In this document: piece by piece, positions 36,197 through 41,844 of the stretch
Layout: the number at the start of each line of letters is the position of its first letter
Position numbering within the stretch: the stretch's first letter is position 1
Source of the DNA: Psammoneis japonica
Taxonomy: Eukaryota
Direction: 5' to 3'
Assembly (NCBI GenBank): GCA_008632985.1
Contig: QPGO01000290.1
Coordinates: 1-64,000, forward strand
DNA length: 64,000 nucleotides
Made by a program: the position numbers and the translations under genes
Notes under the pieces: model-generated
What the model was told of the DNA's origin: nothing
Seen by the model: only the letters and a program-made list of their open reading frames with translations
Database searches by the model: none

Positions 36197-36390
36197 GCAA
36201 GCCCCAGTCGTGTTCCAGGGGTGGTGACACATTGGGCAGTGGGTGTCTTCTGCATCTGCAGCTGTGGACTCTGTCATTCTTGAGAGTGGATTTGTTGGTG
36301 TGAGCCTCCCAGCACATGCAGTTGATTTGGCTCAAGCCCTCAACTTGGTGGACCAACTCAAGCAGTGGACATGGCTCAAGCAGACATTGA
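36197..36390 (+). repeat. Hypermutated duplicate of 41457-41660
   Basis: Colinear alignment with small indels; the aligned TA and CG sites are converted to TG/CA. Confidence 0.85.
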
Positions 36391-38050
36391 CTCCACAGTC
36401 AATTCTGCTGTCTTGCTTGGGGATTGGAACTTCAAAAAGGGGCAAGGTTTCCTCCATGAACCTTTCTCCGGTGTTGGAATTGTGCAAAAATTGCTGAGCA
36501 GAATTTCATCATGCCCATGATTTCCTGAGCAACTGTTCTTTTGTTGATCAACCCATCTCTGCATGAGTCAAAATCTTCCCTGAGTCAAGAAAGAGAACGC
36601 AAGAAATGACAGTGTCATCACTTTCTTCAGATGAATTGGCAACAGCAAAAGCCCAGCGCAAATCCTTCTGGCTCACTGGAAAAGAAATGATGCAGCTCCG
36701 GTCCAACAAGGGAGCCCCCGCTCTTTCAAGCCACTCCAACAGCCTCCCCAATGAGCCATTGCTGTCCTGGTGGCTCATCAGGGGGCATGTTTGCAGTGGC
36801 AAAAAAATGGAAGAGAAGACAGAACGTGTCTCATCATTTATGTTTGTCCTGCAATGAAAGTTGATGATTGCAAGGATTTGACAGAAAGAGACACTTGGAA
36901 GAATGGCAATGACAAACTCACCATTGAAGTCAGAAATTGACCAATGGGTTGTTCAGCCAGTCCCTGTCTGTGTGGTCAAAGTCTTCTGAAACAATGAAGA
37001 CCAAGTGATTTCCTGTTTTTTCTTTTCTCATTTTTTCTTTGGGGTCGAATCTTGGGAGAAAGAGTTGTTTGCCACATCAGATGTGGCAACGCACCCATGC
37101 ACAAAGGTGAGCCCCTTTGTTGCTCCTGCAATCTTGAATCTCATCCTCCATCAAATTCTCAAAAAACTCCCTCTTGCACTGAAACATGACCACTGCCTCC
37201 TGCTCCTTCTTTTTCTTCTTCCTCTCTCCCTTCTTCTTCCTCTTTCCCTTTTCCTGCCACTCTTTTTCCATCTCATCAGCCTTTTGTTTGTTGGGTGATC
37301 ACTTTTGCCTGGCAGGTGGGCTGAAGCTTCAACAATTTGGTCAATGAAGCACCCATGAAAAAAATCAAGTGGGCTTGTTTGCATTCAAAAAGGTTTGAAG
37401 TCATTGATGCACAGTGTTGTTGGGCTGGCACAGCAAGGAAGGGCAGGGATCAAGTGCCACAGCACTCCCAAGTTTTTCTCCATGACCAAAATGAGTGAAA
37501 CCACTGATTCTTTGCTGAGGACACCCCATGGATCCAGATGACCCCAAGAGTCAACTTGGGAGTTTCCAGGACAGAGTGCGTCCAATGTTTCCTTTGCAAA
37601 AATGTCTTGTGGCTTCTGATCAATCAGGTGCTGTTCATTCTCATTTGAGCTGACACAAGGATCTGGACATGCTGGCAACACATCTGTAGAGAACATCCAG
37701 CTGTCTGTGTGTGGCTCAACAACCAAAAGGTTGAGGAAGTGATCCAAGGACTCTGCCAAATCTCCTGAGAGATCCGTTGTTGACACAAAGAATCCATGTC
37801 TCTGGATGCAAAAGTTGCTCCTCATTGTTTCTTTGCACAAGGCTGCTGCCTTCTCCTTTGTGGTGGTTGTTCAAATCAATGTCTCAAGAATCGTTTCAGC
37901 TGCTTTGTCTGCTTTGTTCTTTTCACCAGAAATCCCAAGAATTTTTGCCTCTTTTTCTTGGTTGGGTTTCAACCCACTCAAGGTCACCCCATCTTCTTCC
38001 TCAGAATGCTCTGCATCCTCCTCTTTCTGGGATGGCTTCAACTTGGGTGC

Positions 38051-38154
38051 TTTCTTTCTTTCTTTCTTTCTTTCTTTCTTTCTTTCTTTCTTTCTTTCTT
38101 TCTTTCTTTCTTTCTTTCTTTCTTTCTTTCTTTCTTTCTTTCTTTCTTTCTTTC
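38051..38154. repeat. (TTTC)26 microsatellite
   Basis: Perfect tetranucleotide run. Confidence 0.98.
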
Positions 38155-40385
38155 ATCATTTTGTTCTGCCTTGTCATTGTCACAGCCAGGAGCATCATCA
38201 TCTGGATTGTTTGTCCCATTGCGGTGTGGAGGAACATTGTCCTCATCAACCTTGTCCTCCTTGTCAACCTTTGTCTCCTCAGCTGTTGGTTTCCCAATGA
38301 CCAGGCAGCCACCTTTCAGTTCCAAGATCTTCTTGGAATTGTGTGCTTTCTCTTCCAAATTGCCATGATGCATTTCACATTTGAGTGCAAAAGTCTTGCA
38401 ACTGTGGTGCAATGCCATTGCCAGAACAACATTGCCCCCTTGAACAAGTTTTCCCATTCTGGCTCACATTGTTGTGACAGATCCAGTTTTGTCCAGCGCT
38501 GTTTGCAGTGATGGACAACAGCCTCTCTGTGGTTTTGGAATGGTGCTTTCTGTCTGGACTCCTCGCAAACAGCATGACAAACCTTGACGTTGTCCCCCCC
38601 CCCCCCCCTGGACACTTGGGAAATTGTGGCTTTGGCACAACTGCGCTCAGTGCGTCATTGTTGAGCTCAATGCTGAAGCCACGCTTGCAGACAAACAACA
38701 CAAGACCAAAGGTCATGATCTTTGTTTGAATGTTTGAAGCCAAATGGACAAAGCCTGCTTGTTGGAGCTTGGGGTCCATGGACTGGTGTTGCTTTTTGCA
38801 ACTTTGTGAAACACAGTCAAGCACTGCTTTCTTTGTGTTGACAAGCACTCTGCAAATCATTTTGGCAAACTGTGACACGCACAACTCACATCCCCCATGT
38901 GGCTGGATCACATGGGGAACTGACAAGGATGCATCACCAGGGAACAAAAGCTTGAAAGAATTTCAGTGAGAGTCAAAGGCTTCAATGACAGTGTGAAAAT
39001 GGCAAGCACTTCCTCCATGTGAAGCACATGATTCTGACATTTTTGTCTCTCTGAGAACTGGATGTCACCAGAAGAAATCAGCACTGCAAGGCACGCTTCA
39101 TCTTCTTTGTGTCCATGACAGGCAGAACAGCTCTCCAATGTGTTCCTCAACCCACAAAAAAAGGTCTTCTGACAGCACTGCCATGGCTGATTCCACTGTG
39201 ACAAGCTTGTGCAGTTCGATGAACTTGTCACAGATTTGTTTGCATTGAGGCTGGACTTTGGCATTTGACATCTTAACAGCGGCATCTTGTGTGCTTGGTT
39301 GGCCCTGATTTGTTGGACAATGATGTGCTGCAACACCACCAATTGTTGCCATTGATCAACTTTTTGACCTCATCAATGAGACTTGCCTTTGTGGAATCTC
39401 TCAGCAGCCCAGTGACTGTGTCATGCATTCTGTGCAACAGCGAGAAAGCATGAAAAGAGTCTGTCAGAAGGTTGCAAACACAGAGAAAGACACATCACCA
39501 ACAACGATCTCACATGAATGCAGTGCAATTCACTGGATCTTCCCTCCTTCCTGGAGATGAGAGCACCATGGAGCAGCTCCCAGTGGCTTCCTTGGAAACT
39601 TTGATGTCACTGCAATGGTTTGCAATTTTGGAGCTGGTTGCAGAGCTTGCTGCAGATGAATGTCATTGTGATGACATGGAACACAGAAAAGCCCGACTCA
39701 AGTGTGCCATCATTTGGTTGTCAATTGACACCCATGTCTTTTTCCGCAGCCACTTTTCTCCAGTGATGGAAAGATTGGTGTTGTCCTTGAGTTGTTCAAA
39801 CCTCTGTTTTTTTTAATTTGCTCCCAAAATTGACCTGTGTTGACATTTTGTGTTGTTGTCTCTGGTGCTGCCTCTGTGTCATTGCAGCCAGTGTTTCTGC
39901 TGACTTTGCTGTTTTGTGGAACAAGAGCCTGTGGGCTTGAGTGCAAAGTGTCTTGCAGAAGTGCATCTTGCTCACAGCTGCTGTGCCAACCACATTGCGC
40001 ATCTTGTGCTGCTGGCTGCTGGTTGCCAGCAGAGTGCCACACTGCTGCAGTGGGGCCAGCAGGGCTTGCAGCACAGGCCCTGCTGACACTGCCACCTGCA
40101 TCACCAAGCCTGCTGACATCTGTGTTTGCAGTTGGGGCATTGGTGTGTCCACAAACGGGGTGATGCATCGCAGCCAATTACATTGTGCATCGTTTGCCAC
40201 TGACACTGTCGCCTGCATCACCAAGCCTCAGCATTTGTTGTCAGGGCATTGATGTGTCGATCTGCAATCGGGGGGGCATGCATCGCAGCCAGTTACATTG
40301 GCGTCGTTTGCCACTGACGACTACCATCTGCGTCACCGTCAGAATCGTAGGGAGATTCTTGATTGTTCCCCATGCAAACGTCATC

Positions 40386-41255
40386 ATGGACAAACAGCTG
40401 TTCTCAAAACAAATCCAACTCACAGCACAGACGATGTCAACAGCCATGCCAAGCAAAGACGAACATCCCATGGTCACAATGGCCAAGGCTGTTAAAAGCG
40501 ATTGCTTTCCAGAGAAGGACTGTCACGACAAGTGGGTCAAGTTCCTGTCAGAAGCCGGCAAGTCGGAACAATGCCTGAGTTGGTCCAACGGTTCGGGCAA
40601 AGGAAAAAGGTGCAGGTGCATGAAAAGAGCCTTCTCTCCTGGGAGCCCTGCCGCAAAGATGTTTTCGAATTGGGTTGTTTCGAATGCTTCGGTGCTCTCT
40701 TCTGAACAAGGCATGCTTGAAACAATCATCCCTCTAATCAAAAAGAGAAAACAGATGTCGGAACCCCAAAACCCCAATCATTATCTTTTTATCGAAGCGA
40801 AGCTAAAAGCACAAGCCGACGTGTTCTTCTTTACGGGGAAAAAGCACTACAATGCAAAATGCACATGGATTTGTCTCCCAGGCACCAAGGAAGTCGTTGT
40901 TTGCCAAAATGCATTCTGCTACACATTTAACATCAGAAGGTTGTCCTGGCAAAAAGCAAGGGATGGTGTGCATTATGCACCATCAAGCAAACCATCAAAG
41001 AGCAACAAGCGGCAATGGGATGCAACGCCGGAAGATGAAATTCCAAATCAACACCGTGAATTGGACAAATTAAACAGCAAAGCTGACAGTCGGGATGCTG
41101 AGAAAAGGAGAGACTTCAAAGATTCACGAGGCAGCAATAATGAGCAGAGACTAATGAAGCTTGCCAAGAAACTGAACGTGAAGGTAGATTTGGCGCCGGA
41201 TGATGAAATTGACCCTGTTGCTGAAAGCTCTGGTTGTCGCACGGTATATGTGTAG
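40386..41255 (+). CDS. Hypothetical protein, copy 3 of the family: unrelated Cys-containing N-terminus plus the distal part of the conserved module
   Basis: Open frame ending ELDKLNSKADSRDAEK..EQRLMKLAKKLN..GCRTVYV-TAG. The 5' part is TA-depleted, the 3' part normal. Confidence 0.5.
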   Translation: MDKQLFSKQIQLTAQTMSTAMPSKDEHPMVTMAKAVKSDCFPEKDCHDKWVKFLSEAGKSEQCLSWSNGSGKGKRCRCMKRAFSPGSPAAKMFSNWVVSNASVLSSEQGMLETIIPLIKKRKQMSEPQNPNHYLFIEAKLKAQADVFFFTGKKHYNAKCTWICLPGTKEVVVCQNAFCYTFNIRRLSWQKARDGVHYAPSSKPSKSNKRQWDATPEDEIPNQHRELDKLNSKADSRDAEKRRDFKDSRGSNNEQRLMKLAKKLNVKVDLAPDDEIDPVAESSGCRTVYV

Positions 41256-41844
41256 GATGGGGCTTGCCGTTGCGGTTTCAAGTCAGGACGGAGCGCAACA
41301 ATTAAAGTATTGCATGCATGGAGTAAGGAGTAACAGGTCGGATGTTCACAGCTGTTGGTCCTGAAACACCTGTTAAGCATAGATTTGACAGCCGGTTCTG
41401 CAACACGCCCACCTGACTACAATCCATCTAACGGCTCGTCTTGTATGTACTGTATTGCAAGCCCTAGTGTTCCGGGGGTGGTGACATATTAGGCGTTGGG
41501 GACTCTTCTGCATCTATAGCAGTGGACTCTATCATTCTCGAGGGTGGACTTGTTGGTATGGGCCTCCCACATGTAGTTGATTTGGCTCAAGCCCTCGACT
41601 TGGTGGAGCAACTCCAGCAACTACTGGCAGTAGTGGACGCGGCTCAAGCATACAACATTTGCTTGGACGAAGCGTCAACGTCAGGAATCAGCGAGTTTTC
41701 GGGCTCTTTTGAATCCTGACAAGATCTCGCAGCGTTGACGGGTCGTCTTCTGTGTCGCTAGAACTACGGTAGGTAAACCGCAACGTTACTATTTAGAGTA
41801 GAAATACTTAAATCATTATGATTAACTTTCGTCAACTTTCATAT

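Follow-up and report, generated by a model that had tools for sequence, protein, structure and literature searches.

TA-free domains in a 64-kb stretch of a diatom-like genome point to localised TpA hypermutation layered on slower CpG decay

The stretch of DNA analysed here, referred to throughout as the window, comprises the 64,000 nucleotides of contig QPGO01000290.1 (assembly GCA_008632985.1, positions 1 to 64,000 of the forward strand), a 64-kb scaffold with three runs of N (46, 418, and 919 N). In it, gene islands of ordinary composition alternate with kilobase-scale domains from which the dinucleotide TA has almost disappeared. Our subjects are these domains and a duplicated segment with one copy in a domain and the other in a gene island, a pair noticed in an earlier reading made from the letters and their open reading frames (ORFs), hereafter the sequence-only reading. 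The domains very probably arose through DNA-level hypermutation of TpA to TpG or CpA, limited to delimited regions and layered on a slower decay of CpG. The domains, and the two duplicated pairs described first, are as follows (o/e, observed-to-expected ratio).

1..6426: TA-free, CG-poor domain; TA o/e 0.02-0.08, CG o/e 0.24-0.39; sharp TA boundary at 6427
28740..32690: TA-free, CG-poor domain; TA o/e 0.01-0.09
35740..40178: TA-free, CG-poor domain holding a converted copy; CG o/e 0.10-0.20, CA/TG o/e 1.56-1.88
45883..50537: TA-free domain; TA o/e 0.02-0.06
58241..62817: TA-free domain; TA o/e 0.02-0.09
36155..36364: converted copy of the main pair, inside a TA-free domain; BLASTN partner 41408-41619; 0 TA
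41408..41619: unconverted copy of the main pair, in the gene island between an ORF at 40164-41255 (+) and a gene at 41845-43605 (-)
31434..31677: converted copy of the second pair; BLASTN partner 33316-33558 (67.7% identity, E 3e-13)
33316..33558: gene-island member of the second pair, not converted; local TA o/e 0.52, CG o/e 1.04

Composition was measured in 64 bins of 1 kb, and domains (25,031 bp) and islands (16,526 bp) were also pooled. TA o/e was below 0.10 in 28/64 bins and below 0.35 in 45/64, while gene islands ranged from 0.36 to 0.69. In the pooled domains TA o/e was 0.03, with CA and TG at 1.70 and 1.76; in the pooled islands TA o/e was 0.51. Expressed per kb, TA drops 16-fold, from 35.8 in islands to 2.2 in domains, and CG drops from 50.8 to 18.6 (domain CG o/e 0.32). 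CA plus TG rises from 153.7 to 215.9, a gain of 62 per kb that stands against a combined loss of 66 for TA plus CG. GC content is nearly constant (0.484 in domains, 0.469 in islands). The domain at 35740-40178 retains four TA in 4.4 kb, at 36839, 37687, 39274, and 39814. The TA edges are sharp (6427, 32691, 35739/40179, 45882/50538, and 58240/62818); for example, the 1043 bp before 62818 contain 0 TA and the 460 bp after it contain 20.

The sequence-only reading had described positions 41457-41660, in the island, and 36197-36390, in what it termed a repeat domain, as colinear duplicates in which eight of eight aligned TA and six of six CG are changed in the domain copy. Aligned with MAFFT over those coordinates, the two copies are indeed colinear (160/188 aligned bases identical), and a recount gave the same figures. 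The eight cleanly aligned TA of the island copy read CA (4) or TG (4) in the domain copy, and its six CG read CA (4) or TG (2). The island copy has 11 TA in total; of the remaining three, one lies at the ragged 3' end, where it reads GA, and two fall inside a 13-base deletion. The domain copy has no TA and a single CG, which lies within a 3-base insertion, and 15 of the 28 mismatches fall where the island copy has a TA or CG. Over the BLASTN segment (79.5% identity, E 6e-48), TA was kept at 0/11 sites and CG at 0/6, compared with 146/179 for all other dinucleotides (Fisher p = 3.5e-8 and 6.4e-5, respectively). The surroundings differ in the same way, with TA o/e 0.69 and CG o/e 0.80 in the island bin versus 0.01 and 0.18 in the domain bins. 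This is a single duplicated segment whose domain copy is saturated and whose gene-island copy is untouched. An 83-residue ORF of the island copy had 0 relatives by phmmer among 1.84 billion representative proteins, and the ORF is consequently probably non-coding or lineage-specific. The word repeat was not borne out for the present day; 35.5-38 kb, together with much of 29-32 kb, has approximately single-copy contig depth at a likeness of at least 90% (one sample). The second pair had been said to show the same pattern. It does so in a weaker form. None of its 10 TA and none of its 12 CG are kept, 10 of the CG became CA/TG, and the codons CTC TAC TAC TAC are faced by CTC TGC TTT TGC (LYYY/LCFC), but the TA became CA/TG in five cases, TT in four, and TC in one.

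Other duplicated segments of the window extend these observations. In pairs with one TA-normal copy, the other copy kept 0/11, 0/10, 1/22, 2/25, and 0/9 of the TA, compared with 12/25 in a control pair in which both copies are TA-normal. In the main pair and in the pairs designated P2-P6, the copy outside the domain is unconverted. The earlier claim that conversion is one-sided therefore describes the main pair correctly; however, where both copies lie in depleted domains, as at 447-1946 and 2097-3602, both are converted. The position of a sequence, rather than the existence of a partner, decides whether it is converted, and conversion acts independently on each copy after integration or duplication. 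The features that bear on this are listed below.

20786..28057 (-): young Copia-type long terminal repeat (LTR) retrotransposon, partly converted; RVT_2 (E 1.3e-33) and gag_pre-integrase domains
20786-21073 and 27770-28057: LTRs of the Copia element, 288-bp direct repeats; 5-bp target duplication GGAGG at 20781-20785 and 28058-28062
28893-30364 (-): old inverted relic of the Copia element's 5' region, within the domain 28740-32690
17126..18960: tandem duplicate, 2 x 918 bp, partly converted
447-1946 and 2097-3602: paralogous segments, both inside the TA-free domain 1-6426, converted independently
12852-14875 (+), 33840-35121, 40164-41405, and 50348-51923: copies of a gene family, three of the four abutting TA-free domains

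The Copia element provides the clearest view of timing. Its TA o/e is 0.22-0.30 and its CG o/e 0.79-1.05. The two LTRs of such an element are identical when it is inserted; these are now identical at 280/288 positions, and the eight differing bases comprise five single differences of TA versus TG or CA, one double difference of TG versus CA, and one other. Thus, seven of the eight lie at TA-derived sites, while CG is unchanged at 14/14. Since two LTRs of one element differ at TA, the changes came after integration. At three LTR sites the older inverted copy has CA, one LTR has TG, and the other LTR has TA, a combination that requires an ancestral TA. The older copy itself (28893-30364 on the minus strand, against 26586-28057) is identical at 988/1437 positions and kept 1/22 TA and 8/94 CG.

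A second test of direction came from 80 related Copia loci from metagenomes. Seventeen were translated, namely the 15 best-scoring and the two poorest in TA; three (L012, L017, and L018) were excluded for stops and the two TA-poor loci (L068 and L036) served as test targets, leaving 12 stop-free translations as outgroups. Tyrosine is encoded by TAY, cysteine by TGY, and histidine by CAY. Tyrosine is conserved in at least 80% of the 12 outgroup reverse transcriptases at 12 columns, and there the window's element has cysteine at six, histidine at five, and tyrosine at one. A control locus, L001, kept tyrosine at 12/12 of the same columns, and at other columns conserved in at least 80% the window's element kept leucine at 28/30, glycine at 22/23, and lysine at 19/22. 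With 11/12 conserved tyrosines lost, the 1487-codon frame is nevertheless open; the seemingly intact element is dead. Low TA as an inherent property of this Copia lineage was considered and ruled out, as TA o/e is 0.36-0.87 in 78/80 of the metagenomic relatives. The two others carry the same signature (TA o/e 0.04 in L068, with 5 TA over 1-1789, and 0.18 in L036, with 21 TA over 1-1776; both are CG-poor with CA/TG at 1.6-1.7). Their elements share only about 43% protein identity with the window's element and belong to a different lineage, and the window is accordingly not unique.

The tandem duplicate represents an intermediate state. Its copies are identical at 867/918 positions; 21/21 single differences are transitions, 10 of them TA versus CA/TG, and in 13/15 adjacent double differences CA stands opposite TG. 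By dinucleotide class, we counted TA/TA 10, TA/CA 7, TA/TG 4, CA/TG 14, CG/CG 36, CG/TG 4, and CG/CA 3. The paralogous segments in the first domain (1346/1490 identical) show CA opposite TG in 26/41 adjacent double mismatches, so that the three pairs lying within depleted DNA give 26/41, 13/15, and 9/9. Such an excess is what is left when one ancestral TA (or CG) is converted on different strands in each copy.

The four-member gene family supplies a third outgroup-type comparison. Its proteins share a conserved C-terminal module (...NEQRLMKLAKKLN...DDELDP...GCRTVY), and DNA conservation runs past the stop. One copy has a weak match to the Pfam Crinkler N-domain (25.2 bits, cut-off 24.6), and the remainder of these proteins matched no Pfam family. 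The copy at 12852-14875 is TA-poor and CG-normal. Whereas the three TA-normal copies end in ...TVY(L/V) and a stop, the TA-poor copy reads ...TVHVW and continues: TAT and TAG at 51330-51430 and 34360-34460 correspond to CAT and TGG at 14160-14260. Of the 11 TA common to two normal copies, six correspond to TG, two to CA, two to TA, and one to AA in the TA-poor copy, compared with AT kept at 39/48 in the same three-way DNA alignment, in which one copy is partly ill-aligned and only columns with all three sequences were counted. The sequence-only reading had taken the direction to be from TA and CG to CA and TG, and had named an outgroup copy matching the TA-free version as the observation that would refute it. 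No such copy was seen in the LTRs with the older copy, the 12 outgroup reverse transcriptases, or the three family copies; the direction is therefore supported elsewhere in the window, though not on the main pair itself.

That reading reported TA and CG changes together. Both dinucleotides are lost in the domain copy, by two processes with different rates. TA is scarce but CG normal at 13-16 kb and 16-21 kb, in the young Copia element, and in strips bordering the islands, while the old domains have lost both. The strips measure 130-560 bp and are TA-free (50200-50537, with 26 CG and 0 TA; 57912-58474; 62686-62817; and 6269-6426); there, TA conversion seems either to reach beyond CpG loss or to run faster. 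Rates are indirect estimates from comparing copies. In the LTR pair about 7/14 TA site-copies are converted, compared with 0/28 for CG and 1/~550 for other sites. Each copy of the tandem pair has lost at least 50% of its TA and about 8% of its CG, with about 0.25% of other sites changed. On these estimates, TA conversion per copy exceeds background substitution more than 100-fold and CpG decay several-fold. This rate gap and the TA-poor, CG-normal regions indicate that the two losses are separable. Taken together, the young LTR element, the tandem duplicate, and the old relic form a natural time series, from which the process can be seen to act on integrated DNA, to precede CpG decay, and to depend on location.

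The consequences for coding sequence are unusual. Conversion of TA to TG or CA makes no new stop and destroys TAA and TAG, so elements die by missense (tyrosine to cysteine or histidine) and keep long frames. TAA and TAG together fall to 1.7 per kb in domains from 16.2 in islands. TATA is absent from 25 kb of domains but occurs 24 times in the islands (16.5 kb), and signals of the TATA and AATAAA types may plausibly have been lost as well. TA-free DNA consequently yields long false ORFs that affect annotation. Among 89 ORFs of at least 110 residues in TA-free DNA, none reached a Pfam cut-off, two having sub-threshold coiled-coil matches, and three further ORFs in TA-free DNA had no Pfam match.

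As to mechanism, the picture is one of sharp-edged, kilobase-scale domains in which single transitions turn TpA into TpG or CpA, about equally, until almost no TA is left. Adenine deamination at 5'-T-A-3' in DNA is the simplest candidate chemistry, to which we give a little less than even weight: the adenine, on either strand, would be deaminated to hypoxanthine and then read as G in the next replication. tRNA adenosine deaminases act in the U33-A34 context, and a 5'-T preference matches it. We judge it an even chance that the process is directed to mobile or foreign DNA by the silent or methylated chromatin of that DNA; the sharp edges and the coincidence with CpG-depleted blocks both hint at such targeting. 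The CpG loss of older domains would be ordinary 5-methylcytosine deamination, a reading based on the block-wise CpG methylation of diatom repeats. In another diatom species, methylation is reported to fall mostly at CpG, within repeat blocks as long as 30 kb that are interspersed with unmethylated ones (PMC5124317). By analogy, we infer that the whole may be a genome defence of the kind proposed for the chlorarachniophyte Bigelowiella natans, a rhizarian alga.

The survival of a TA also depends on its neighbours. Relative to island densities, ATAT, ATAC/GTAT, and GTAC vanish first and TTAA, CTAA/TTAG, and CTAG last, a ranking that is tentative in that islands stand in for the ancestral context mix. 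TTAA makes up 17/56 of residual TA versus 39/591 in islands (p = 6e-7), and an additive model with one flank per strand fits the ten context classes well. Tentatively, the order suggests that each strand has a single preferred flank, which would be a purine at the second base before the A or else a pyrimidine following it. Among 51 events with both flanks unchanged, RTAR gave TG 4 and CA 11 and YTAY gave TG 7 and CA 5 (p = 0.13).

The chemistry could instead begin at the thymine. In this explanation, a TET/JBP-type enzyme oxidises or hypermodifies the thymine of TpA (to 5-hydroxymethyluracil or a base-J-like product), which then mispairs or is poorly repaired, giving T to C; at TpA, on either strand, the CA and TG products would be identical to those observed. 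5-Hydroxymethyluracil occurs in TpA and TpC contexts of dinoflagellate DNA. However, there is no excess of T to C at TpC, with TC o/e of 1.05 in domains and 1.11 in islands, and neither a mutational outcome of this kind in the literature searched nor any evidence of an enzyme was found. We consider the thymine route unlikely.

A still less likely explanation is hyperediting of retroelement transcripts from A to I by an ADAR-like activity with a 5'-U preference, followed by reverse transcription and integration. The preference for a T or U neighbour does resemble that of ADAR, as the Discussion of the B. natans preprint remarks (10.64898/2026.01.13.699255). The LTRs of one integrated element differ at TA, however, which places the changes after integration. 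The products are also mixed: in pairs P1, P3, P4, and P6 (P2 and the overlapping P5 being left out), TA became CA 28 times and TG 20 times, and runs tests on the seven series with more than four events showed no significant strand runs of CA/TG outcomes (p 0.27-1.0). Moreover, the affected DNA includes segments that are not retroelements, copies of the gene family, and entire contiguous domains with sharp edges. We regard RNA editing as very improbable.

Reversed polarity, in which the CA/TG-rich version is ancestral and island copies gained TA (by a RIP-like C to T change at CpA, RIP being repeat-induced point mutation) and CG, has scarcely any probability in our estimation. Two sequences alone, such as the main pair, give no direction. 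Outgroups elsewhere in the window nevertheless carry the TA state, and the island copies match all other genes in composition. All 17/17 targets are changed in the domain copy, whereas only a third of island CA/TG sites would have been struck, and the TA-free state runs for kilobases past the duplicated segment.

Another explanation is a sequencing or assembly artefact, in which a modified base at TpA is miscalled and the true DNA is TA. Strand-dependent miscalls at a modified palindromic step could imitate random CA and TG, and the run library type is unrecorded. We compared k-mer contigs, built from three sequencing runs of one sample, with the window. Contigs of up to 2.6 kb at about 70x match it, which fits accurate reads; one of 2618 nt (depth 72.8) has 4 differences from the window over 35459-38000. 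This match excludes an error of assembly or polishing, although the reads, coming from the same sample, are not independent of the assembly. Gaps of 46, 418, and 919 N are in keeping with scaffolding from short reads. The graded states, with the young part-converted, the old saturated, and ordinary substitutions and indels besides, fit real evolution, and the unrelated metagenome contig L068 has the same signature at TA o/e 0.04. We therefore give an artefact almost no credence. Selection against TA rather than mutational bias, for example through a nuclease that cuts at TA, RNA decay sensitive to UpA, or the avoidance of TA/TTAA transposon targets, is equally hard to credit: TA is mildly under-represented in most genomes, these islands included, but the depleted DNA is decayed and non-coding, the conserved tyrosines of the element's own reverse transcriptase are destroyed, the depletion is 16-fold with sharp edges, and young differences lie nearly all at TA.

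Several observations weigh against the interpretation that we prefer, TpA hypermutation over slower CpG decay, or against particular parts of it. BLASTN found no third copy of the main pair within the window, and together with the lack of a protein relative this means that the polarity of that pair rests on analogy and on the saturation of the whole 4.4-kb domain. The four of ten TA that became TT in the second pair fall outside the signature. The tandem pair has 11 sites converted in one copy only, where a single-rate model gives about 24; the deficit suggests that sites differ in rate, that some conversion predates the duplication, or that gene conversion has occurred. In principle, the LTR differences too could stem from gene conversion by other copies. 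Deamination of A and a T-directed route cannot be separated from sequence alone, and the Pfam search of the window's ORFs identified no deaminase or other candidate enzyme. The organism is most likely a diatom or a close relative, and a single protein carries that assignment. This JmjC protein (574 residues, 54996-56720 on the minus strand) has 306 relatives; the named ones among the best 120 are all from diatoms, at 43-48% identity (Pseudo-nitzschia, Cylindrotheca, Nitzschia, Phaeodactylum, Mayamaea, and metagenome-assembled genomes of Bacillariaceae). The long, intron-poor genes and the Copia-type element were considered alongside it. An oomycete source, which the weak Crinkler match had raised, was set aside in view of these relatives, and we infer that the source is not B. 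natans itself, since a database that includes its proteins yielded none nearly identical.

Some further features of the window deserve mention. Within the domain at 35740-40178, a perfect (CTTT)26 microsatellite occupies 38050-38154. AT skew is about -0.2 (T over A) at 37-39 kb, and 16-21 kb is likewise T-skewed. At 36841-36842, next to one of the four TA remaining in the domain and at single-copy depth, the sole contig has CA where the window has TG; these may be two alleles, each converted independently from one ancestral TA or CG. From 40 of the 83 rows of contig-versus-window variants in 26000-38000, we classified 32 events, of which 16 are single differences of TA/CG versus CA/TG and six are doubles of CA versus TG. 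By contig k-mer depth, 28406-28806 (about 57,000) and 32817-33217 (about 9,750) are high-copy repeats, single-copy DNA being at about 70, and 15811-16186 is a 92.6% copy of the former. The genes in the window are long and intron-poor. The gene at 41845-43605 (-) has just 3 protein relatives, and a protein atlas gave only bacterial methyltransferase look-alikes below 0.9. The ORF at 8242-9507 (-) encodes an unusual fusion of a class-II glutamine amidotransferase domain (GATase_4, E 1.8e-38) to an S-adenosylmethionine methyltransferase domain.

An adenine deaminase, if that is the cause, would have no known precedent as a natural enzyme that introduces A to G changes into chromosomal DNA at a defined dinucleotide. 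We tentatively suggest, with somewhat more doubt than confidence, that diatoms, and perhaps the wider stramenopile-rhizarian assemblage, own a dedicated 5'-T-A-3' DNA adenine deaminase directed against silenced mobile or foreign elements. Such an enzyme would be a natural adenine editor acting on DNA in a double-strand context for genome defence. It would erase every TA within a short evolutionary time, and with it TATA- and AATAAA-type signals, tyrosine codons, and two of the three stops. Up to half of some genome regions would become TA-free graveyards with spurious ORFs.

Among known systems, RIP of ascomycete fungi is similar in that context-specific transitions disable mobile or duplicated DNA and leave blocks of odd composition beside gene islands. 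RIP, however, is triggered by homology, mutates both duplicates, and consists of C:G to T:A changes, chiefly at CpA, which generate TpA, stops, and a higher AT content. Here, TpA is destroyed, stops are removed, GC content is unchanged, and the copy outside the domain is spared in the main pair and in P2-P6. The sequence-only reading had already set its pair apart from RIP, and we concur: RIP was rejected because the direction is opposite, the products differ, and the outside copy is spared, and the outgroups show TA to be ancestral. Methyl-CpG decay, as in diatoms, plants, and vertebrates, resembles the CpG component, in that CG becomes TG or CA, slowly, and only in repeat or relic domains. 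In pairs P1, P3, P4, and P6, CG became TG 47 times and CA 45 times. Unlike that decay, the process here touches TpA, and 13-16 kb, the young Copia element, and the island edges lose TA with normal CpG. ADAR and APOBEC editing in animals likewise cripples retroelements through clustered transitions of deaminase type, and ADAR prefers a 5' U. These enzymes act on RNA or on reverse-transcription intermediates before integration and are strand-specific, with APOBEC converting C to U in TC and CC contexts. The changes in the window, in contrast, came after integration and affected both strands equally, without strand runs.

The nearest parallel is the TpA hypermutation of integrated nucleocytoplasmic large DNA virus (NCLDV) and virophage DNA in B. 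natans (Mettrop et al., bioRxiv 10.64898/2026.01.13.699255, 2026). According to that preprint, 230/231 mutations in two integrated viral regions of mutation-accumulation lines were A to G or T to C, and these A:T to G:C mutations were all at TpA, with a rate of about 6e-7 per site per generation or about 1000-fold background (10.64898/2026.01.13.699255). It gives a TpA o/e of 0.45 for the NCLDV region and describes, elsewhere in the genome of about 95 Mb, 124 clusters depleted of TpA and rich in CpA plus TpG, and an enrichment of reverse-transcriptase and DDE-endonuclease domains among TpA-poor coding sequences; its authors suggest an ADAT2 homologue, a hypothesis put forward without evidence of activity (10.64898/2026.01.13.699255). 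The window agrees with B. natans in its A:T to G:C transitions at TpA, giving TpG or CpA according to strand, in their confinement to delimited regions beside a normal genome (the control pair keeps 12/25 TA), in a TpA rate orders of magnitude above background, here inferred from copies, and in a TpA depletion that is matched by a gain of CpA plus TpG and needs no second copy. It differs in its host, a diatom-like stramenopile rather than a rhizarian, and in the targets seen: an LTR retrotransposon, relics of unidentifiable origin, and host-like duplicated segments, with no viral genes recognised. It differs also in being saturated (TA o/e 0.01-0.09 over 28 of 64 kb, as opposed to 0.45), in the coupling with CpG loss in older domains, and in that de novo events, sporadic in their occurrence, were seen in B. 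natans whereas ours are deduced from copies. A full-text search, of partial literature coverage, found no description of TpA-targeted hypermutation in diatoms or other organisms outside B. natans. The comparison supports the view that the window adds a new and extreme case, from a new lineage, to a type of defence that had been described just months before. With a diatom-like genome, retrotransposon targets, and saturation, it would make TpA hypermutation a widespread mode of defence in major marine primary producers.

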